Made by a program: the position numbers and the translations under genes
The notes under the pieces: model-generated
Seen by the model: the letters and a program-made list of their open reading frames with translations, nothing else
The model's database searches: none
What the model was told of the DNA's origin: nothing
From: a virus
Lineage: Duplodnaviria > Caudoviricetes
Length of the DNA: 29,506 nucleotides
Reading direction: 5' to 3' (one strand)
IMG/VR virus record: IMGVR_UViG_3300020402_000839
Coordinates: 1 to 29,506 of that record
Shown: in pieces, positions 1,608-29,506 of the stretch
Position numbering within the stretch: the stretch's first letter is position 1
How the letters are laid out: each line of letters opens with the position of its first letter

Positions 1608-2115
1608 CGTTTACCCCATTGTGATAACGGACAACCGGCTCACCCTTGTGCCGTCTGTCCCAAACGAGCCAATTATAATTGTGAATTGGGTGCGCTGTTC
1701 GATCTTCCGGGGCGGTCCACCACGGCCTGAACGTCAGTATCGTTTTGCCAGCAAATGGTGCTTCCATCATCCATTGCCGGGTGACGGCTGTATCCCATTG
1801 GACCCGGAGCAGGGCAGCACAGAAATCGATGACGCCATCTTTTACTAAGGTGATGCATTGCCCCATCAGTTCATCAACGAGCCCTCGTTTATATGGCGGG
1901 TTGGTCAGGATGGCATTTGGTGCGCCAAGCAAATCTCTCAGGTTGCCGTTGACCGCTGGGTACAGTGGTGTCGGTTCAGCGCCATGAAATGGATCGATGC
2001 AGGGTGTAGGAATGTCCCATGTCGCGTTGATCGCAATGACGCAGCGTTCATCAATTGTTGGATAGTGGTCATCTGGGTTGCGGTCATATTGTGAGTGGAC
2101 GTAGGCGCTACGCAT
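1600..2115 (-). CDS. Small phage DNA amino-methyltransferase-like protein (N6A/N4C)
   Basis: DDHYPT near the N-terminus, degenerate motif I CIDPFHG, catalytic-type ILTNPPY, C-terminal YNWLVW. ATG at 2115 overlaps the upstream stop (track starts at 2124). Confidence 0.7.
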   Translation of the reverse strand: MRSAYVHSQYDRNPDDHYPTIDERCVIAINATWDIPTPCIDPFHGAEPTPLYPAVNGNLRDLLGAPNAILTNPPYKRGLVDELMGQCITLVKDGVIDFCAALLRVQWDTAVTRQWMMEAPFAGKTILTFRPWWTAPEDRTAHPIHNYNWLVWDRRHKGEPVVRYHNGVNDE

Positions 2116-2476
2116 CGTCTGCACTCAGAAAGTGACACCATTTTTGGTACATCGGGATAAAATCGTCGAGCTTGAGCATCACCCAACTGTCGCCTGTCGC
2201 TACTCTATTTCTCCGTGTGATAACGACCGGGATTTTTGTATCACCAGCTGCAGCCGTTGCCTGTTCCATTGCGGGTCCGGGTGTAAACCGTTCTGTTCTT
2301 TTGGCTTCAACGGAGAGGTAGCGCAGACCTTCAAGGTCGCCCTTGCCGGTGTGTATGCCGCCACCTGACAGCGGTGTCCTAGTGACGACCTTGTCACCGC
2401 CATGCATCATCTGGTTGAAATACTCAGCGAGCTCTCGCTCGTAATCGTTACCTTTTCTTTGAGCAGGGCTTGCCAT
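2108..2476 (-). CDS. Holliday junction resolvase-like PD-(D/E)xK nuclease
   Basis: RKGNDYERELAEYF...RTPLSGG...GDL...SVEAKR...QA...PVVITRRNR; RBS GAGGAG upstream. Confidence 0.8.
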   Translation of the reverse strand: MASPAQRKGNDYERELAEYFNQMMHGGDKVVTRTPLSGGGIHTGKGDLEGLRYLSVEAKRTERFTPGPAMEQATAAAGDTKIPVVITRRNRVATGDSWVMLKLDDFIPMYQKWCHFLSADDA

Positions 2477-2562: not shown

Positions 2563-2639
2563 ATTTCTTTTGAGCATTTTGAGAAAGTATGAGAGCCTAT
2601 GATAACCTATTGGGGGAACTTTTTTTTGAGGGAAGGTAT

Positions 2640-2984
2640 ATGTCAAATGACCAAAAACGAGAGTCAAAGTGGAAAAGAATACCACCGACTCCAGAGCGTC
2701 GCGCTCTCGCCGCTCGACTCAAGGTGCTACGGCAAATGAACGGGTGGAAGCAAGAAGATGCTGCCCGGGAACTTGGCTGGACTTTGAACAGCTATGGCGA
2801 CATAGAATTGTGTCGCAAGAGAGTACACACAGATCAATTGCTCATGTTGGCGAAAGTGTTTGAGGTTACACCTAGCTGGCTCCTTACGGGGTCAATCAAA
2901 GATCTCTCTGATTCAGCTAGAAGACGAATTCAGAATGATGTGTTTTTTAATCTATCCGAAAAGCAAGGACAAAAAAATGAGTAG
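2640..2984 (+). CDS. XRE-family helix-turn-helix transcriptional regulator (probable repressor)
   Basis: LAARLKVLRQMNGWKQEDAARELGWTLNSYGDIELCRKR...LLMLAKVFEVTPSWLLTG; RBS GAGGGAAGG before ATG 2640. Confidence 0.88.
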   Translation: MSNDQKRESKWKRIPPTPERRALAARLKVLRQMNGWKQEDAARELGWTLNSYGDIELCRKRVHTDQLLMLAKVFEVTPSWLLTGSIKDLSDSARRRIQNDVFFNLSEKQGQKNE

Positions 2985-3914: not shown

Positions 3915-4721
3915 TTGGCATATTTCAATCCACAAGATAAACGTCTCAAAAAAGCCTTAGAGCGATTTGAGATCAAAGCATGGTCTTTCAGTACCTTGGA
4001 GATGTGGCGTGACAGCCCAGCGCGGGGTCTGATGAAAGCGCTCGATCTACCAGGCGACCCGGTAGGTGTTGCAGCTATTGTCGGCAACGCAACGGAGAAG
4101 GGCATCGAGCTGGCACTGACCGGCACACCGTTAGATGTTGCTGTTGATCTTGGTAACGAAATGCTCACTGAGTTTATGGCTTTCGAAGAGCCAGACGATA
4201 TTGCTGACTTGACAAAGAAAACTGGTCAGCGAATCCGCACCGGGTACGATAAGCTAAAAGAATTCGGCGTGCCGAAGTGTCAGGTGAAAATAGAGTACCA
4301 GCCAGACTGGTCGCCAATCCCTATTCTTGGCTATCAGGATTTTGTATTTGAGGATCATGGCCTTGTCGTTGACTGTAAAGCGCCGGGCATGAAGCCGAGC
4401 GCATCAAAGGTCGACTCGTATATGCGCCAAGGGGCGATTTACACCCAAAACACAAATAATAAGTTTGCAACGCTCGCAGTGCTGCCTGATGGCAAGCCTC
4501 GAGGCGCTAAGGCTATCGGCCCTCGCTCGCATTGGTTCGATCTAGAAGACGCAGCACTGCCACTCGAAGAGGTCAAACATACAATCGGTGCGATCTGCAA
4601 GATCTTAACCATTAGCGACGACCCGCAAGAGATCGCCGCGCACATCATTCCAGATTACTCACATTTTCGGCTGAACGGCGTGGTCACCCGGCAGTCTGCC
4701 AAAAAATTATTTGGCTATTAA
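3915..4721 (+). CDS. PD-(D/E)xK exonuclease (RecB/Cas4-like phage recombination nuclease)
   Basis: WSFSTL...P, GNATE, ILGYQDFVF...VVDCK, RQGAIY (QxxxY). TTG start with GAGGGAG RBS; adjacent to an SSB-like gene. Confidence 0.8.
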   Translation: MAYFNPQDKRLKKALERFEIKAWSFSTLEMWRDSPARGLMKALDLPGDPVGVAAIVGNATEKGIELALTGTPLDVAVDLGNEMLTEFMAFEEPDDIADLTKKTGQRIRTGYDKLKEFGVPKCQVKIEYQPDWSPIPILGYQDFVFEDHGLVVDCKAPGMKPSASKVDSYMRQGAIYTQNTNNKFATLAVLPDGKPRGAKAIGPRSHWFDLEDAALPLEEVKHTIGAICKILTISDDPQEIAAHIIPDYSHFRLNGVVTRQSAKKLFGY

Positions 4722-4750
4722 ATCAACCGACCATATGAAAGGGAAACAAA

Positions 4751-5332
4751 ATGAGCTTTGATGATTTTTTACAGGAAGCATCATTCACTAATCTGAATTG
4801 GAACGGCAGCTCGGGCAAGCTTCGTGTCAGGGCTGGCGGGGAGCAGAACGAATTGAAGCTCCCGCAAACTTTTGTTGTCGATCCTAAAACGAGTCAGTAC
4901 GGCTGGCGTGCTTGGGTCCCGCAGCCAGAAGGTAACAAAAAGCCTTTTGATCAGCGTGTAGCGTTTACTGAAAAGATGCCAGCTAAGAGTGCCGACTCAA
5001 CGGTAGCTGCACTAGAGGCTAAGACATTTTTCTTTCAGTGTTATCAAGATGAATGGGATGATTTGGCGTCAGGCGTAATAGAATGGGCAGCTGATCAGAA
5101 GACAGTATTCAAGCAGCTCATTCCACTGGGCCGCGAGCTGCAAAAAATTCCAGAAGCAGAACGATCGAAAAAAGCAGTAGAAGTAACGATCACTGGTAGT
5201 GAGAAAGTTGGTGCTAACAAAAACCCTGCGCCAGCATTTACCATGAAGGTGGTTAAGAGACCCGCTGCTTTTGACGAGGATCCAGTGAGCTGGACAACAA
5301 CTTCGCCAAGTGACGATGGCGACTTCGGTTGA
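4751..5332 (+). CDS. Probable single-stranded DNA-binding protein
   Basis: Follows the exonuclease; YGWRAW, PAF...VKRPAAF and an acidic aromatic tail SDDGDFG. Confidence 0.65.
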   Translation: MSFDDFLQEASFTNLNWNGSSGKLRVRAGGEQNELKLPQTFVVDPKTSQYGWRAWVPQPEGNKKPFDQRVAFTEKMPAKSADSTVAALEAKTFFFQCYQDEWDDLASGVIEWAADQKTVFKQLIPLGRELQKIPEAERSKKAVEVTITGSEKVGANKNPAPAFTMKVVKRPAAFDEDPVSWTTTSPSDDGDFG

Positions 5333-5452
5333 CACGGATGGTCTGTGTCTGCCCCCGGTGATGGTTTCCATTTTTCCAACTGTCGGCTATTGCCGGGGGA
5401 TCTTCAAACGCCCGGGCGAGTGTATTAATGCACATCAGTGACTCGTCCGGGC
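5331..5452 (+). other. Three tandem RNA hairpins
   Basis: GACACGGA/TCTGTGTC (5331-5349); CCCCCGGTGATGG/CTATTGCCGGGGG (5352-5399); GCCCGGGCGAGT/ACTCGTCCGGGC (5410-5452). Mismatches are G-U compatible on the + strand. Confidence 0.55.
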
Positions 5453-5646
5453 AAATGAGCCCCTACCGAAGACTAATCATTTTCGATGGCGACGATGGTC
5501 CAGAGCTACGGTGTTACAACCCCCAAGATCGAGAACCGATCTTTTCGGTCAAGCTTACAAACAATGAACTGATGAAACTTAGCATCGAGATGCTGACCAT
5601 TCGCAAGCGCCAAGACCACAAGGAACAATTAGAGAGGATGAAATGA
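5428..5646 (+). CDS. Hypothetical protein (alternative start 5455)
   Basis: ORF in the early operon; stop overlaps the next start (ATGA). Confidence 0.6.
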   Translation: MHISDSSGQMSPYRRLIIFDGDDGPELRCYNPQDREPIFSVKLTNNELMKLSIEMLTIRKRQDHKEQLERMK

Positions 5647-5801
5647 AGCAAAAACATTTGAGGCAAATTTTTTGGGAAACGGACCACAAAAATCGGTTCG
5701 CAATTCTAGCAAAATATATTTCACGATATCATCGCTCCACAGTCGAAAAGCTTTTGCGTGACAAAATTAACAACAATGTAGTGGAAATGAAATGCGACTA
5801 A
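5643..5801 (+). CDS. Hypothetical protein, 52 aa
   Basis: GAGAGG RBS and ATGA coupling; MKQKHLRQIFWETDHKNRFAILAKYISRYHRSTVEKLLRDKINNNVVEMKCD*; fills the gap between neighbours. Confidence 0.6.
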   Translation: MKQKHLRQIFWETDHKNRFAILAKYISRYHRSTVEKLLRDKINNNVVEMKCD

Positions 5802-6231: not shown

Positions 6232-6437
6232 TGCTTGACGATCATTTGTATGACTTAAAAGAAGTTCTGAAACGATACCCGGTCTCGCAGGCCCAATGGT
6301 ATCGCGGTATGAAAGATGGACGGTATCCACCAGGCGAAAGAAAAGGGGGGAGACGTTTCTGGTCTCCCCGCGAAATTAAGAAATTAATCGTTAAAGGTGA
6401 GTATCACTGGCAGAGAGAGCGTGCCGCCAGTGAGTAG
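6228..6437 (+). CDS. AlpA-family excisionase / recombination directionality factor
   Basis: LYDLKEVLKRYPVSQAQWYRGMKDGRYPPG...GGRRFWSPREI matches the AlpA pattern; convergent with the integrase. Confidence 0.8.
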   Translation: MMLDDHLYDLKEVLKRYPVSQAQWYRGMKDGRYPPGERKGGRRFWSPREIKKLIVKGEYHWQRERAASE

Positions 6438-7639
6438 TCTTCAACCAACTTTCTACGCATTTTCATACCGTTTGCAGTATTGTACGCTCGCTCCACTTCA
6501 GTGCCTACGGCATGAGCGAGCTGCAGCTCCACTGCATCATTCTCATAGATATATCGGTCGCTATCGTCGAGCTGGTCCTTAGACCAAGTCTTAAACGTAC
6601 CCCTGGCCGTTCCATGCATAACAGCCTTGCCGCCATTGGTCGCTGTACCTAATGGGTAGTAGCGGTCGATCGAAGTGTTCAAAGATCTTATGTCTAGAAA
6701 GCCTCGTCTGCCCTCAGTAACGAAAATATAATCGTGACCAATGCTTGCTCTATTTCTTGGCGCTTCAAGTTGCCATTGCTTCAGAAGTTCGATGACGCGA
6801 GAGCTCAAAGGCATCACATGATCTTTATCGGATGACTTCAACCGTGCAGCTGGGATGGTCCAAGTAGCGTTATCGAAATCGATCTCGTCCCATTCGCCAA
6901 GGGTTATTTCAGAGGGTCTTTTGTTAGTAAGCAGAATTATTTCAGCTGCAACTTTGTCACGTTTTTTCAACTGATTGTTGCCGTCCAAATTAGCAAGCCA
7001 TTGTTGTAGGTCAGCAAATGATAATTGACCTAAATGTTTAACCGCACGCTTTGCTTTTTTAGGCAACGTTCTTTTTATCTCTTCCATCTTTGTTGAGACA
7101 GGAACGTCTGCGTCGATTTCGCTAACGCCAAAATACCAAACGGCCGCGATGTTGCTGAGCCGCTCCTTAGCGGTAGGCATATCCCAGAATGGTAATATAG
7201 CTTCTTTGATATGTGTCTTTTCAACTGATGCCATTGGACGGTCGTTAAATTCATCGGTCATATCCGTTATCACGACCTTGCGCATTTTCTTGACTCGACC
7301 GGGAGAGATATCGTTACGCTGGCTTAAGTATTTTTCTGCCGCCTCTCTCCATGTCATCGTTTGATACGCAGACCTTTTTATTGCAGTTGGCAAGTGCTCA
7401 CCGTTCGCCAACAACTTGTTGTAAAGAGATCCAGTGGTCAAAGCATCGTGCAACTCCATACCTTGTGACGACCCTAGGGTGATCACCATCTTCTTGCGAT
7501 GCTTCATTTTACGATAGATAAAAGTTTTGAAGTTAGTGGGTGTTATGTTCACCCACACGTTATGCCCGACAGCTACCCTATACGGCTTAGCCTTTGGCTT
7601 AAGGCTGTCAAACTTTGCTTGTGTCATTACTTGTGCCAT
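6404..7639 (-). CDS. int: P4-like tyrosine integrase with N-terminal arm-binding domain
   Basis: LKPKAKPYRV...KTFIYR...ITLG arm domain; catalytic set TNKRPSE (R), WDEIDFDNATWTIPAARLK (K), HGTAR, QLAH, VERAYN (Y), RRKLVEDY. Confidence 0.93.
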   Translation of the reverse strand: MAQVMTQAKFDSLKPKAKPYRVAVGHNVWVNITPTNFKTFIYRKMKHRKKMVITLGSSQGMELHDALTTGSLYNKLLANGEHLPTAIKRSAYQTMTWREAAEKYLSQRNDISPGRVKKMRKVVITDMTDEFNDRPMASVEKTHIKEAILPFWDMPTAKERLSNIAAVWYFGVSEIDADVPVSTKMEEIKRTLPKKAKRAVKHLGQLSFADLQQWLANLDGNNQLKKRDKVAAEIILLTNKRPSEITLGEWDEIDFDNATWTIPAARLKSSDKDHVMPLSSRVIELLKQWQLEAPRNRASIGHDYIFVTEGRRGFLDIRSLNTSIDRYYPLGTATNGGKAVMHGTARGTFKTWSKDQLDDSDRYIYENDAVELQLAHAVGTEVERAYNTANGMKMRRKLVEDYSLAARSLCQ

Positions 7640-8651: not shown

Positions 8652-9065
8652 TCACCCTCCCCGGATAAGGTCTGCGTTTCTTTCTGCTCTCCCTTTCACT
8701 TGTTTGGCGTATAAACTATCCATCAAATCGAATGCAGCCGCATCGTATGAACCTGCTTCCATGTTCGCCAAAAAGTTAACAAACTTGTCCAGCCGGTTCC
8801 CCAGATTAAATGACAGGTCGATCATAACGTGCTGTCGGTTCTCAGACAGATCTCGCCACCAAGGATATTTGCTATCTAGCCGATCACGCACTCTTCCAAT
8901 GTCATTTTCTAACAAATAGCGTGCTTCTTCCTCAGTGATGCCGCCCATACCTTCTTCAATCAATCGACCCACCCCAATAGTCGAATAACCGAGGTGGTCT
9001 TTATATGCGTGTAATACCATACCCTCATTTGCAATGAGCATATCGATCACTGTGTTCATGTTCAT
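8652..9065 (-). CDS. Endolysin, T4-lysozyme-like (GH24)
   Basis: NEGMVLHAYKDHLGYSTIGVGR carries the E-x8-D-x5-T triad; RQHVMIDLSFNLG; SLYAKQVKGRA. Confidence 0.92.
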   Translation of the reverse strand: MNMNTVIDMLIANEGMVLHAYKDHLGYSTIGVGRLIEEGMGGITEEEARYLLENDIGRVRDRLDSKYPWWRDLSENRQHVMIDLSFNLGNRLDKFVNFLANMEAGSYDAAAFDLMDSLYAKQVKGRAERNADLIRGG

Positions 9066-9463
9066 TTACTTATGCCTTTATATTTCTCAAAGCTTCTTAA
9101 ACCACCGAGCCCTAACATACCCATCAGCACTGGCATCATTTCGCCAAGGTCTAATGCCGGCAGTGCTACTAGGTAATCCAGCTGCGCGAGCACAAAAATC
9201 ATTATTGGATGGATCACATAATTGTAGGCCATTGCGACACCGCAGGTCCATCCAATGAACGGTCGCCAACCAGCGACAAAAATGTTTCTACTTTGAGCCT
9301 CGGCCTTATTAATCTCTAGCTGCCCCTTAGCGAGCTCCTGGGCGTGTCGCTCAGCCATTGTAGATATTTCATGAGCCAGCTTGTTCTTTTGATCTTTGTC
9401 TTCAATAAATTTATCGAGCAGCCCGGTGACAGGCTGCACTAAACTCCCGAGCAGATTAATCAC
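9062..9463 (-). CDS. Holin (3TM / GTA-release holin family)
   Basis: LLDKFIEDKD...QLEINKAEA...WRPFIGW...GMLGLGGLRSFEK; directly upstream of the endolysin. Confidence 0.88.
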   Translation of the reverse strand: MINLLGSLVQPVTGLLDKFIEDKDQKNKLAHEISTMAERHAQELAKGQLEINKAEAQSRNIFVAGWRPFIGWTCGVAMAYNYVIHPIMIFVLAQLDYLVALPALDLGEMMPVLMGMLGLGGLRSFEKYKGISK

Positions 9464-24875: not shown

Positions 24876-26615
24876 CTAGGCAAATTTTAACGTAGAAGCG
24901 ATGCTTGATCCCGCTGGGGCATTTACCCAGGTTGGAGCAGAGCCAGTTCCGTTCGTTTGTAAAAATTGCCCGCTAGTTCCCGCAGCAAGATGGGCAGTCG
25001 TGCTCGCCGCACTTTGATACAAAATTCCTTGTGCCGCTCCGCCAGAAATATTGGCTACAGCGCCAGTTGGCTGCACGTAACGATTATCACTTTGCGTTTT
25101 CGTATACATATCAGCCAATGCGAAAGTGCCATAGGCGACAACATCAACCGTATCGTTAACAGCCGCGCCAGTTGCCAGCACAATATTAGTTCCGCTCGTT
25201 ACGGTCACGTCTGTGCCGTTCACCAATTTTATACCGTTAAGGTAAACATCCACAAAATTAGGGTTATAAGAAATAGCCCCTGTAGCTGGGAATGTTGTTT
25301 GATTTGCTGTGGCTACATAACTATGTCGATCAACTGTGCCGTTTGTCGCTGACCCCGCATCTTCCCAAGAAGATCCATTATACACGCGAAGTTTTGACGC
25401 TGAGGTTACAAACGCTAAGTCGCCAGCGCTAAGGGCATTCCCGCCACCGTCTGTAGTGGGGTTGTTTGTGCTAATTTGATAAGTGTTACCAAATGCGTTT
25501 ACGTCTGTAAGATTATTAGCGACTGTATTAACTGATGTTATCGAGCCGCCAACATTATTTACATTGCTTATATTTGTCCCAACGGTGTTCACATTTGCGC
25601 TATTGCTATCAACGGCTGTCACCGCGCTCGATATATTATTTACGCCTGTAACATCTGACGCTATGGCGTTTACCCCTGATACGTCACTGGCAATCGCGTT
25701 TACGCCTGTTACGTCTGAAGAAATTCCAGCAACGGTGGTTACGTTTGCCGATATACCAGCAACGGTGGTTACATTTGATGACACTGCATTCACACCAGTA
25801 ACGTCACTGGCAATAGCATTTACACCAGTTACATCGCTGGCTATACCAGCAACGGTGGTTACATTAGCATTGATACCGGCAACGGTATTTATATTAGTGG
25901 CATTGCTAGCTACAGAATTTATGTTTGTAGCGTTTGAAGACACATTTCCAATGTTGGTTTTGAGCGGGTCTGTATTTACAGCCGTTACGTCTGACGCTAT
26001 CGCGTTGACTCCGCTGACCGCGCTAGAGATGCCAGCTACAGTCGTCACATTCGACGCTATCGCATTCACCCCGGATACATCAGAGGCTATCCCATTGACC
26101 CCAGTCACTGCAGATGAAATTCCAGCTACCGTTGTTACATCGCTAGAAATACCAGCGACAGTATTTACTGAGGCAATATTTGCAGCCACTGTCTGGACGT
26201 TTACACCATCAGGGAGCACCAAGACCGTTATAGAAGAGCTGCCATTGGTTCTTAAGTAACCAGTAAACGTATTCGCCAAAGTTGCGGTCGTTGAGCCATT
26301 GGAAAATGTAATCGTCTGCCCGGTAGCGTTTTCGATAAATTTAAAGTCATCTACAGCCGGGATATTTACCGTCACACCAGATGCAGGCGTGCCAGTAAAC
26401 TTAACAGCACGATACGCATGTTCATTGCCAACTACTGAATAATTTGTCGTGCCAAATGTATAGCTGGTCGATGTTCCGAGATCTACCTCAAGATAACCAG
26501 CGAGTACATCGACCTGATCGATGACACCGTTGATGCCGTTAGACAATCCCCAGGTGTTGAGGTTTTCGGATAGTGCTTGTTTTTTTAATTTTAGTCGCGT
26601 GGTGGGTGTAGCCAT
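24876..26615 (-). CDS. Tail fibre protein with 10-residue repeats
   Basis: N-terminal anchor ENLNTWG; many VTTVAGISSD / VTGVNAIASD repeats; ATANQTTF...VDVYLNGIKL domain; GTSGQFLQTNG...PTW. Confidence 0.85.
   Translation of the reverse strand: MATPTTRLKLKKQALSENLNTWGLSNGINGVIDQVDVLAGYLEVDLGTSTSYTFGTTNYSVVGNEHAYRAVKFTGTPASGVTVNIPAVDDFKFIENATGQTITFSNGSTTATLANTFTGYLRTNGSSSITVLVLPDGVNVQTVAANIASVNTVAGISSDVTTVAGISSAVTGVNGIASDVSGVNAIASNVTTVAGISSAVSGVNAIASDVTAVNTDPLKTNIGNVSSNATNINSVASNATNINTVAGINANVTTVAGIASDVTGVNAIASDVTGVNAVSSNVTTVAGISANVTTVAGISSDVTGVNAIASDVSGVNAIASDVTGVNNISSAVTAVDSNSANVNTVGTNISNVNNVGGSITSVNTVANNLTDVNAFGNTYQISTNNPTTDGGGNALSAGDLAFVTSASKLRVYNGSSWEDAGSATNGTVDRHSYVATANQTTFPATGAISYNPNFVDVYLNGIKLVNGTDVTVTSGTNIVLATGAAVNDTVDVVAYGTFALADMYTKTQSDNRYVQPTGAVANISGGAAQGILYQSAASTTAHLAAGTSGQFLQTNGTGSAPTWVNAPAGSSIASTLKFA
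25480..26200 (-). repeat. Degenerate 30-bp coding tandem repeat
   Basis: Recurrent units such as CCAGCAACGGTGGTTAC and ACGTCACTGGCAAT encoding 10-aa repeats. Confidence 0.85.
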
Positions 26616-26886: not shown

Positions 26887-27515
26887 ACGATCGTTACCGC
26901 AACACTAGGTACAACTGGCGAACCGTTAAACCTTGCTCTGCTATCTTGACCTGCCAGCTCAGCTGCAGCTCGATCTAGCATTCCATACCAAGTTTGCAGC
27001 CTCGCATCTTCGCCAAGATATGGCGCTGTATGAACCAGCGTGCCATATAAGTAAATGTCCGGGTAATACGTCAGCAACCAGTTTGTATCGCTGTCATTTG
27101 TTAAGGCTGGCACTCGCTGGTAATAGCGTAGAACAGCGCCAGCTCCGCTGTTAGGTGGCGGTCCAATTTTTACCTTGTCGCCAATAATAGTGTAGTTAAT
27201 CGGCAGGCCAGTACTTGTGCTCGGAAACTTTGTCTCAAATCCAGATGCTGACAAAAACTCTAGATTGCTGCGAGGGCTCGACTGAAACACAAGTGTTCGA
27301 GCTGCAATAAAATCAGCTGGCAAACTTGCTTCGCCAGCTGCGTCAAATGTCAAAGTAGACGTTGTTTCCATAAATCGATTTTGAAACTTTGGATCACGAT
27401 TGACCATTGCTTCGCACAACGTAATTGAGTCAACAATCTGCGAAGTCATGTCATCGCGATTTAATGTGTCAGCGACTGCAGCTTTAAGCTGACCGTAATT
27501 TGACAATGCCATCAA
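26883..27515 (-). CDS. Head-tail adaptor protein
   Basis: ALSNYGQLKAAVADTLNRDD...LPADF...G.P..Y...TNWLLTYYPDIYLYGTL...PYL..DAR. Confidence 0.82.
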   Translation of the reverse strand: MMALSNYGQLKAAVADTLNRDDMTSQIVDSITLCEAMVNRDPKFQNRFMETTSTLTFDAAGEASLPADFIAARTLVFQSSPRSNLEFLSASGFETKFPSTSTGLPINYTIIGDKVKIGPPPNSGAGAVLRYYQRVPALTNDSDTNWLLTYYPDIYLYGTLVHTAPYLGEDARLQTWYGMLDRAAAELAGQDSRARFNGSPVVPSVAVTIV

Positions 27516-28794
27516 GCTTTTCCTTTATGCGTTTAGCAGCCGTTGCAGGCGTCCAATCGTTCATTACTTCAACTGATTTATAGAGCGGCATATTCATAAC
27601 TGTGTGACACCAGCTCGGCGCTTTTGATCCGAGCACTAGTGTTTGTACGCCAAGAGCACCGGCAAGATGCACAACTGTATTAGGCACACTAACAACAAGA
27701 TCCAGCTCGCTTACAAGTGCCGCTGTATTGTCATAGTCCAAAGCTCTGCCAGTAATATAATCAAACGCTTTGACGCTATGCTGTTCTGTATCTTCGTAAT
27801 GGGTATGTTCAAGCGAAACAAATTTAGCGTTGATGCGTTTGAAACTCGCCATCAGTTTTTTCAGTTCGACACTCCGCGCCATCGCACCAGTGTGTCGTAA
27901 TCCCCCAGTCCAGCTAATACCTATCTTTTGTTTTTTGCCTAATGAGCCAAGCAGGGCTCGCGTCATTAATCGACGCTCCGGGTCAGCTAATAAATAAGGG
28001 TGACCCCGGTAACTCGCAGCTGACGGTCTATAGTAAAGAGGCAGTGATCCAAGCGGAATTGAACCAGCATCAGCGGGAGCTCTCCAGCCGGGCTGCTCAT
28101 TGCTCAATGTTCCCATTACCTTTGCTTCGGGGAAACTGCGTCGAAACAGATTGGCTAGGCGCTCATCCACTTCGACCACTGCACCTTTTTTCACATCTCC
28201 AATTGCATCATAAAGACATTCGGCAAACATGATCTGGTCGCCTAGACCTTGCTCACCGTAAAAAACGACATCGCCACTATCGCCCGGCATCCATCTGGGA
28301 GCGTATGTATGGCGCTTGACACGATCGCCGTGTCCTTCGCCTTTGTTCCACGCTTCCCAGCCTTTGCGGTAATCGCCCCGGGCTAAATGTACAAATGCCC
28401 AGTTCCAATCCAGCTCGCGTGTGTCAGCTGCTTCGTATTCATCCTTAGTCATTTTGGCAAATGGCCTCATGAGCCATTCTGCAGCCTTGTCATGGTCGCC
28501 AATATTTAGATGCGCCAATGCAGCGTTATTAGCGGCCTGTACGTTCTTCGGGTTCTTGTTTGCCGCTGCTTCGTAAAATTCTAACGCCTCATTCCACCGA
28601 CCCATTGCAGCAAAAACTCGGCCTGCTTCATTCAACGTAAATTCGTTCTGTTCAATGCCAACCGCTTGGCTAAGAAATGCGTATGCGTGTCCGAGGTTGC
28701 CAAGTTTGAGGTAAGCCGCGCCAAGTTTTACGGCTGCTTGCCAGTTATCAACATCAAGCGATAATTCCTCGTCTAGCTGTTCAATGACATTCAT
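27484..28794 (-). CDS. TPR-repeat protein fused to a GT-B glycosyltransferase (GT9-like) domain
   Basis: N-terminal TPRs (LGAAYLKLGNLGHA, GRVFAAMGRWNEALEFY, ALAHLNIGDHDKA); EQGLGDQIMFA; KIGISWTGG; FVSL; TAALVSELDLVVSVPNTVVHLAGALG. ATG 28794 is coupled to the upstream stop. Confidence 0.85.
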   Translation of the reverse strand: MNVIEQLDEELSLDVDNWQAAVKLGAAYLKLGNLGHAYAFLSQAVGIEQNEFTLNEAGRVFAAMGRWNEALEFYEAAANKNPKNVQAANNAALAHLNIGDHDKAAEWLMRPFAKMTKDEYEAADTRELDWNWAFVHLARGDYRKGWEAWNKGEGHGDRVKRHTYAPRWMPGDSGDVVFYGEQGLGDQIMFAECLYDAIGDVKKGAVVEVDERLANLFRRSFPEAKVMGTLSNEQPGWRAPADAGSIPLGSLPLYYRPSAASYRGHPYLLADPERRLMTRALLGSLGKKQKIGISWTGGLRHTGAMARSVELKKLMASFKRINAKFVSLEHTHYEDTEQHSVKAFDYITGRALDYDNTAALVSELDLVVSVPNTVVHLAGALGVQTLVLGSKAPSWCHTVMNMPLYKSVEVMNDWTPATAAKRIKEKLDGIVKLRSA

Positions 28795-29135
28795 ATGTGA
28801 CCTGATCTTCTGCCAATCCGACCAGTCTGCACCCTGAGATATTTCCATTCCGGGTCATCAAGCTTTTTCATCAACCGAGCACCATGCTCACGATTGTAAA
28901 TGTCTAAACCTTCCTGCAGCCAAAGATGTTGAACACTTGGCGGTATGCGTGCAACTTCCCAGAAATGATTTTCTTTATCTCTCCCGGCTTGGTTGCCCTG
29001 TATGGATTTGTTTGCATCGACAATAAGGTCGGTATGTTTATAGACCGTTTTAACGTGCTGAGTCTGTGTGTCTTCGTCATACCAAAACAGCTCTACTTTT
29101 GTATTATCTTCGTCGAGCGGTCGCCATTTTTCCAT
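28791..29135 (-). CDS. Conserved-type hypothetical protein downstream of the capsid gene
   Basis: AGGGAG RBS; VARIP...W...G...KKLDDPEWKYLR. Confidence 0.75.
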   Translation of the reverse strand: MEKWRPLDEDNTKVELFWYDEDTQTQHVKTVYKHTDLIVDANKSIQGNQAGRDKENHFWEVARIPPSVQHLWLQEGLDIYNREHGARLMKKLDDPEWKYLRVQTGRIGRRSGHI

Positions 29136-29186: not shown

Positions 29187-29394
29187 TTAGGCTACTGTTA
29201 AGCCTACAATCTTGCCGTGCGCCTCAGGCGAAATTGGCAAGATCGAAAATTCAGCCACGATGCTGCGAGCGGTGGAGTCACCAGTCTTAGCCAATTCATA
29301 GCTTGTATATGGTCTTAGAAAACCAACTTGGACCATGTCCATGTCGATTAACAATCCAACATCAGATGATTGGAATCTGTTGCTTACGATCTTA
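29187..29394 (-). CDS. Major capsid protein (DUF5309/SU10-like), final exon
   Basis: KIVSNRFQSSDVGLLIDMDMVQVGFLRPYTSYELAKTGDSTARSIVAEFSILPISPEAHGKIVGLTVA*; tandem TAA TAA and a terminator follow. The frame hits a TAG 10 codons upstream of KIV. Confidence 0.85.
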
Positions 29395-29506
29395 CATTTT
29401 GTTAATTGCAGCTCGCTAAACTACAATCACCGAATAAACGGTGCTGACTATTTCTAGCCAGATCGGACTATATCATCACCCTTTGCAGGGGCTGGGCGCT
29501 TCGAGC
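29395..29506 (-). ncRNA. Group I intron, 3' part (continues beyond the window)
   Basis: Minus strand: GAAGCGCC...CCCTGCAAAGGG TGATGATATAGTCC (J8/7-P7' element); P9 CTGGCTA-GAAA-TAGTCAG; hairpins CACCG..CGGTG and ATTGTAGTT..AGCTGCAAT; AACAAAATG ending in the terminal G at 29395. Confidence 0.85.

Follow-up and report, generated by a model that had tools for sequence, protein, structure and literature searches.

Group I introns in the major capsid protein (MCP) genes of tailed phages have been described in crAss-like phages, in which they occur in the Delta and Zeta groups and may number several per gene (Yutin et al. 2021, PMC7886860, as far as the available text of that paper goes). According to the same text, those introns are recognised mainly by intron-encoded endonuclease domains, and they reside in gut phages of Bacteroidetes whose MCP is unrelated to the one considered here. 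The first-pass annotation of the present DNA had regarded a capsid-gene intron as unusual, a view with which the crAss-like examples disagree. The locus described below differs from them in its ORF-less introns of 261-299 nt, its SU10-type capsid gene, its uncultured marine podovirus-like phage of ~35-45 kb and an RNA contig that carries the exon joint.

Small ORF-less introns at several sites of one gene are also said to occur in Staphylococcus phage Twort, where the single gene orf142 reportedly harbours three ORF-less group I introns, all in one genome. In the capsid genes analysed here, by contrast, an allele holds at most two introns (4 of 13 full-length alleles), and five sites are distributed over different alleles. 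In collaborative homing, ORF-less group I introns are mobilised by free-standing endonucleases (review PMC3984707, in its available part). Here too an ORF-less intron occupies a conserved site between flanks that look co-converted; unlike in that system, neither the 39 ORFs of the 29.5-kb window nor 20 ORFs from the capsid surroundings of relatives yielded an endonuclease gene. In cultured phages (Ralstonia BOESR1, Pseudoalteromonas pYD6-A, DSS3_VP1, and Vibrio, Aeromonas and Twort-like Staphylococcus phages), DNA polymerase and terminase genes hold group I introns whose cores share 70-81% identity with that of the capsid intron across some 150-180 nt, in a different host gene and at a different insertion site; none of 265 matching records covered at least 80% of the capsid intron. 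Phage genomes with many introns, with metatranscriptome support for splicing, have been reported as well (PMC12880540, available part).

In the open-access papers searched, introns were described neither for an SU10-type capsid gene nor for this marine lineage. Papers on freshwater cyanophages (PMC8557907) and Certrevirus (PMC9769974) were set aside as capsid-intron reports, the introns in their available text concerning psbA and HNH genes, and so was PMC6669764, which merely speculates on a DNA polymerase intron. The window, by which we mean the whole linear virus record of 29,506 bases, very probably carries at 29506-29395 on its minus strand the 3′ end of an ORF-less 266-nt group I intron in an SU10-type capsid gene, predicted to be self-splicing and to give a 330-residue protein. 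This is an ordinary small phage group I intron in a host gene that is less common yet already documented, and existing knowledge of group I introns is unchanged by it. A small, common marine podovirus-like type nonetheless joins the phages whose capsid production depends on predicted RNA self-splicing.

The intron 3′ end and second capsid exon in the window

The intron part present in the window comprises the final 112 nt (positions 155-266) of the 266-nt intron, which is cut by the contig end. The features of this region are as follows (sites A to F are defined further below).

29395..29506, minus strand: intron 3′ part, comprising the P7.2 3′ strand, P3′, P8, J8/7, P7′, P9, P9.1, P9.2 and the terminal G
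29492..29498, minus strand: P3′ strand CGCCCAG, its 5′ partner beyond the contig end; paired in 7 of 7 aligned introns
29479..29490, minus strand: P8 hairpin CCCT-GCAA-AGGG, from the CM alignment of L002 and the MFE fold
29466..29478, minus strand: J8/7 and P7 3′ strand TGATGATATAGTC, the most conserved core element
29476-29464, minus strand: GATGATATAGTCC, the element named in the first-pass annotation
29444..29461, minus strand: P9 hairpin CTGGCTA-GAAA-TAGTCAG with a GAAA tetraloop, from the Rfam/CM alignment; a G-C pair is A-U in the site A intron
29428..29443, minus strand: P9.1 hairpin CACCG-TTTATT-CGGTG, from the MFE fold; a C-G pair is A-U in the site A intron
29405..29427, minus strand: P9.2 hairpin ATTGTAG...CTGCAAT, from the fold and the intron alignment
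29395, minus strand: terminal (omega) G; 3′ splice site between 29395 and 29394
29187..29394, minus strand: major capsid gene exon 2, consisting of T (third base of an Ile codon), 68 codons (KIVSNRF...GLTVA) and TAA
29156..29179, minus strand: terminator-like hairpin of 10 pairs followed by a T run, 8 nt after the capsid stop

Followed from 29506 towards lower coordinates, the minus strand opens with GCTCGAAGCGCCCAG, followed by the P8 hairpin; in the CM alignment the J8/7-P7′ segment is aligned to the Rfam consensus gAAGAUAUAGUC with posterior '*', and the 3′ end reads TAACAAAATG, with G29395 as its last base. The terminus AACAAAATG is shared by the window and the full-length relatives. All of the intron elements claimed in the first-pass annotation lie on the minus strand where it had placed them, and the in-frame TAG that it had noticed upstream of KIVSNRF is present at 29423-29421, ten codons before the K, as the nearest in-frame stop 5′ of KIV, with three further stops upstream. 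The fragment gave a partial match to Rfam RF00028 at 29444-29506 on the minus strand (24.9 bits, E 3.8e-4, model positions 183-253, 5′ truncated); this exceeds a chance match, and its score lies under the gathering score of 50 bits, the match being cut off by the record end. Relative to the full 266-nt intron of the related contig L002, 110 of the 112 nt were identical; one of the two differences falls in the P9.1 loop, and the other turns a G-U of L002 into an A-U in the window, in the first P9.2 pair.

The reading frame from T29394 runs (T)AAG ATC GTA..., translating as KIVSNRFQSSDVGLLIDMDMVQVGFLRPYTSYELAKTGDSTARSIVAEFSILPISPEAHGKIVGLTVA, and closes with TAA at 29189-29187. Exon 2 corresponds to residues 263-330 in the relative L073, whose 330-aa protein is uninterrupted. 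In the Pfam family SU10_MCP (PF17236), exon 2 of the window covers profile positions 227-292 of 292 (E 6e-13, 49.4 bits) and exon 1 of L002 covers 6-223 (E 4e-48, 164.8 bits), such that the two pieces abut in the profile at 223 and 227, both above the curated cut-off of 24.1 bits; PHROG 1328 'major head protein' agrees for the capsid gene. The capsid proteins of cultured phages are at best 42% identical, all 292 of 292 matching records being below 60%, and the nearest cultured phages are podoviruses of ~35-45 kb, such as Sinorhizobium phiM5, Methylophilales phage Venkman and Pelagibacter phage HTVC106P. Escherichia phage ECO319P1, considered as a split SU10-type capsid on account of two tblastn pieces, was rejected, as it has two separate annotated capsid genes without an intron.

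Full-length introns and the first exon in relatives

Searches of viral contigs with the exon 2 peptide returned 8 confirmed loci from 28 candidate stretches. In L002, whose exon 2 is 99% identical to that of the window, a full-length RF00028 match of 78.1 bits lies immediately 5′ of exon 2. Full-length matches of 74.5-83.4 bits were present at the window's site (hereafter site C) in 5 of 5 loci (L002, L004, L005, L007 and L009), which bears out the first-pass reading of a group I intron in the major capsid gene; the gathering score was also reached in all five of L078-L082. The site C intron measured exactly 266 nt in the five loci, starting with TTTTCGATAAATTAGTCCCG and ending in ...AAAATG, and exon 1 in these loci ended in ...GCTGGGAT (...GGGAT), hence with a U at the 5′ splice site. 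Exon 1 comprises 261 codons; the ATG-started ORF of L002 (4400-5194) reads ...ASVYISDFSGPAGI and then FR-stop inside the intron, the in-frame TAA lying four codons in. As had been anticipated from the window, exon 1 has an SDFG-like motif shortly before its terminal U (...VYISDFSGPAGI), and the P3-P7 core expected upstream of the window's edge was likewise found in the relatives, together with the 5′ capsid exon.

The longest stop-free stretch within the intron is 63 codons, and in 266 nt there is therefore no room for an endonuclease; the first-pass observation that no homing endonuclease was visible thus extends from the visible part to the full intron, which contains no ORF either. As judged from these relatives, the window phage's own copy is presumably intact; the 5′ 154 nt of its intron and its exon 1 lie off the contig.

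The exon junction was fixed with alleles that lack an intron at site C. For instance, L003 reads ...GGC ATT AAG ATT GTA..., L006 reads ...GGG ATC AAG ATA GTA..., and L073 encodes an uninterrupted 330-codon capsid ORF with ...SDFSGPAGIKIVSNRFQ... (AGIKIVSNRF). It follows from these sequences that an AT|T junction rebuilds Ile (GIKIV) together with the frame. The proposal of splicing after G29395, with a split codon of the form NT|T, is thereby narrowed to AT|T, encoding Ile, and alignment to the intron-less capsid homologues restores the reading frame at the predicted junction. Unless the introns are modelled, the capsid gene of this lineage gets called as two or three fragments, or is missed.

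Secondary structure, covariation and predicted splicing

The pairings expected around the splice sites of a group I intron were recovered in the relatives, with the exon end GGGAU pairing with AGUCCC in P1 (6 exon pairs, including a U.G wobble at the splice site) and 3 contiguous pairs in P10; P7 was near-invariant. P2 to P9, along with P9.1 and P9.2, were seen in both the CM alignment and the MFE fold, and the MFE z-score of the intron was -4.27, with 0 of 200 shuffles folding as well. Two additional hairpins, P7.1 (UCAC-GCAA-GUGA) and P7.2 (GAGCC-AAGC-GGCUC), are situated between P7 and P3′. P7.1 and P7.2 mark subgroup IA, the class typical of phages, and the intron is seemingly of IA type. 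Both hairpins are named as class features in the available part of a review (PMC3984707).

Covariation was assessed with 7 introns from four insertion sites, covering 69 pairs in 12 helices, with P7 drawn as a pseudoknot. Standard pairs occupied 86.5% of 468 cells, compared with 33-43% when the 3′ partners were slid by 1-3 columns, a comparison in which the share of paired cells favours the drawn structure over the slid versions because that structure was taken from one of the aligned sequences. Changes on both sides were found in 26 of 69 pairs, against 4-15 when slid, and no shuffle out of 500 equalled the real alignment in pairing, in covariation score or in compensated pairs. P3 and P4 showed pairing in every row, with compensation in 4 of 7 and 3 of 6 pairs, respectively. 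P7 did not vary in the 7 introns save for one cell and is therefore uninformative on covariation, and the pair counts for P2, P7.2, P8 and P9 are underestimates, as some of the MAFFT rows were out of register there. RNAalifold alone rendered P7 as two local hairpins; this version was rejected, and the canonical structure was drawn by hand from the CM alignment.

From these features we infer the standard group I mechanism for the capsid intron. The late capsid transcript would fold such that P1 pairs GGGAU with AGUCCC, with the U.G wobble at the splice site; free guanosine bound at P7 would attack after the terminal U of exon 1, and the freed exon 1 would in turn attack after G29395, joining ...GGG AU to U AAG AUC.... 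Ribosomes running in from exon 1 would be stopped by the in-frame TAA four codons into the intron. Some group I introns require protein cofactors, and the capsid intron might likewise be unable to splice by RNA catalysis alone, needing a maturase or chaperone from phage or host. All core helices are nevertheless intact, in a stable fold that includes GNRA loops, and no maturase-like ORF was found in the intron, among the 39 ORFs of the window or among 20 ORFs from relatives, so that we consider a need for such a helper rather unlikely.

Exon joining in environmental RNA

The L002 stretch 4400-5660 was partly present in 20 of the 21 public runs listed, these being marine or seawater metagenomes from 11 studies, with six recorded as RNA. 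Four runs were compared with this stretch, comprising X1 (DNA) and X15, X16 and X17 (RNA). The metatranscriptomes X15 and X16 derive from the sample that also gave X1 and, sharing it, are not independent of each other; X17-X20 had small word shares with the stretch. One 262-nt contig in each of X15 and X16 joined L002 position 5184 to 5451, skipping exactly 266 nt (ends TT..TG), with no mismatch in the aligned parts of 24 + 210 nt; the exon 1 side of the joint, at 24 nt, is shorter than the 31-nt guideline, and the first 3 letters of the contig are unaligned. The joined RNA is of the L002-type strain, which differs from the window's strain. Spliced RNA, which the first-pass annotation had suggested looking for, is accordingly represented by an exact joint with 24 nt on one side, and environmental RNA of this kind accompanies the capsid intron.

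Depth in the intron interior (bins 5217-5431) was zero in X15 and X16, a gap that on its own means little, since much of exon 1 was also uncovered. The DNA contig of X1 ran unbroken from 4400 to 5516 through the intron and contained no joint. In X17, an RNA run from another study, a contig spanning 5135-5350 continued unspliced from exon 1 into the intron of a variant site C allele; it shows 10 differences, 3 of which fall in the otherwise invariant 35-nt flank, and may be pre-mRNA or DNA carry-over. The joined form, whether taken as 24, 30 or 48 nt, occurred in none of the 97 DNA loci, among them the 8 distinct alleles lacking the site C intron, although this absence is weak evidence because contigs drop rare variants.

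The joined contig might alternatively represent a transcript, or contaminating DNA, of a co-occurring intron-less allele, the intron itself still being real. Eight of 15 distinct alleles do lack an intron at site C, DNA can be carried over into RNA libraries, and the exon 1 side of the joint extends for only 24 nt. Against this, the flanks of the carriers occur in none of the 8 distinct intron-less alleles and joined forms in none of the 97 loci; the RNA contig reproduces the carrier flanks without mismatch over its 24 + 210 nt, whereas the intron-less alleles differ from carriers at 9-13 of 35 upstream and 11-14 of 52 downstream flank positions; and the DNA run from the same sample, X1, contained the intron-containing form only. 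We hold this origin of the joined contig to be improbable, and splicing of the capsid intron is the preferred source of the joint.

Insertion sites and alleles

A metagenome scan retrieved 13 more close relatives, in which Rfam found 17 group I introns. Insertion sites were mapped on the intron-free L073 ORF, the capsid gene being 993 nt, and the following five sites were distinguished, with the intron lengths at sites E and F set so that each intron ends in G.

Site E, after nt 233: 299-nt intron, in L077
Site F, after nt 263: 265-nt intron, in L070 and L072
Site A, after nt 334: 284-nt intron, in L003 and L070-L072
Site B, after nt 351: 261-nt intron, in L005, L006, L074-L077, L081 and L082
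Site C, after nt 785: 266-nt intron, the window's site

At each of these sites, and likewise at two further ones in a distant clade given below, the last base of exon 1 is U and that of the intron G, and joining the exons restores the frame. Once identical sequences were merged, the site C intron was present in 7 of the 15 distinct alleles that reach the site and lacking in 8; the contigs of two of these seven carriers, the window and L014, stop within the intron. Among the 13 alleles covering all five sites, one had no intron, 8 had one and 4 had two.

A distant clade with SU10-type capsid proteins 35-37% identical to that of the window's clade has group I introns at two further sites, which are close to, yet distinct from, those above.

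AKRAA-ELK site (distant clade, junction AKRAA/ELK): L069 2861-3124, RF00028 109.5 bits
VYVG-DFG site (distant clade, junction VYVG/DFG): L068 3242-3535 and L054 from 1806, 56.9-61.2 bits

Where introns occupy both site F and site A, a mini-exon of 71 nt separates them, as in L070 (introns at 45-309 and 382-665) and L072 (879-1143 and about 1216-1499). The downstream protein of L003 is 100% identical to that of L070 and L072, and the site F intron is absent from L003.

The first-pass annotation had suggested that the intron could gate late expression, and one may accordingly picture it as a regulatory gate that times or limits capsid production and is kept for its benefit to the phage. The intron does lie in the gene of the most abundant late protein, and the in-frame stop four codons into it couples translation to splicing. 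The allele data speak otherwise: the site C intron occurs in 7 of 15 alleles and one allele is intron-free, among alleles 77-94% identical in DNA, whilst related introns occupy four other sites in different alleles. The intron-free L073 and the 8 of 15 alleles without the site C intron show that it is dispensable; as its presence varies from allele to allele, it is not a regulator that the phage requires. No regulatory feature came to light, and the flank mosaic described below fits a selfish, spreading element. The gating proposal is thus unsupported, and we judge it very improbable.

Contigs tend to break inside the intron. Breaks in the site C intron occur at nearly the same position from opposite sides, at intron position 155 in the window and 159 in L014 (3444), and they probably stem from branching of the assembly graph caused by repeated intron cores and mixed alleles with and without the intron; the contigs of L007, L008 and L009 end within exon 2. 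That the window's copy is a decayed or truncated remnant, with the capsid gene broken in the window phage alone and intact in relatives, can hardly be credited: the record does stop at intron position 155, leaving the 5′ half and exon 1 out of view, but the visible 112 nt have just 2 differences from L002 (one in a loop, one G-U to A-U in P9.2), exon 2 is an open frame whose protein is 99% identical to that of L002, and the L014 break at position 159 from the other side makes this an assembly break point and no biological end.

Probable mobility of the capsid introns

The exon sequences around site C form a mosaic. Carriers of the intron differ from each other at 0-1 of 35 positions in the interval -35..-1, and at 9-21 of 115 in -150..-36 and 17-31 of 155 in +53..+207. 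The carrier L002 and the non-carrier L003 differ at 5 of 155 distal positions in exon 2, compared with 12 of 52 and 10 of 35 positions next to site C. This pattern is the one expected from homing with co-conversion of the flanking exon, and its resemblance to that process suggests homing here; selection on splice-site context (P1 and P10 pairing) could explain only the nearest 6-10 nt. The capsid intron is best regarded as a selfish element, which some alleles have and others lack, and it probably spreads between co-infecting relatives by recombination that takes along ~35 nt of the upstream exon and ~50 nt of the downstream one.

Homing endonuclease Pfam families (E <= 1e-3) were detected in none of the 39 ORFs of the window, and homing endonucleases in none of 20 ORFs around the capsid gene of L003, L004 and L006. 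The sole nuclease-like match in this search was a RusA / PDDEXK_15-type resolvase (2111-2476, minus strand). Because no endonuclease was found, it is the flank pattern that argues for homing; a free-standing endonuclease could be encoded elsewhere in the genome, beyond the sequenced part.

Sites E, F, A and B lie within 120 nt of one another and each follows CGU, and the introns at F, A and B start with a similar guide region, GAGCG(C/U); a simple search resolved no guide-sequence pairing for the site E intron. Identity between the introns was 86-87% for E and F, 72-78% for E or F against B, 68-74% for A against the others, and 57-64% for the site C intron against those at E, F, A and B. The CGU sites and shared guides fit transposition to nearby guide-matching sites, which we offer as a lead, and reverse splicing is a published proposed pathway for such transposition (PMC1299323, in its available part). 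We can put forward only tentatively, and with more doubt than belief, that one small endonuclease-free intron family hops by guide-directed reverse splicing, both inside single capsid genes and from one to another in a marine phage population, with later spread by recombination, free of any intron-encoded nuclease, being recorded in the near-identical exon flanks of carriers. With 0, 1 or 2 introns per allele, five sites and co-conversion-like flanks, these genes provide a compact natural series for endonuclease-free intron movement.

Phage context and additional observations

Other genes in the window encode a primase/helicase, a lysozyme, an SU10-type adaptor and tail-fibre proteins, as well as the following.

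6404-7639, minus strand: tyrosine integrase
2589-2981, plus strand: HTH (repressor-like) protein
9065-9463, minus strand: three-TM holin (Pfam GTA_holin_3TM)

The tyrosine integrase and the HTH protein point to a temperate lifestyle. An SU10-type portal gene lies upstream of the capsid gene in relatives, and the initial description of the phage as temperate and podovirus-like is a fair one, given the integrase, the SU10-type capsid and adaptor genes and the portal genes of relatives. The family name GTA_holin_3TM hints at an alphaproteobacterial host.

Between the gene downstream of the capsid gene and the SU10-type adaptor, there is a conserved protein of 436-454 aa (window 27484-28848, minus strand), with relatives in L003 (2669-4030), L004 (6545-7906) and L006 (5871-7178). 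TPR repeats make up its N-terminal part, its C-terminal half is unassigned, and a protein of this kind is unexpected in a head-neck module. A tail-fibre-like protein of 579 aa (24876-26615, minus strand) has PHROG tail-fibre matches and contains a long run of imperfect repeats of ~8-10 residues (…VTTVAGISS(A/D)VTGVNAIASDV…).
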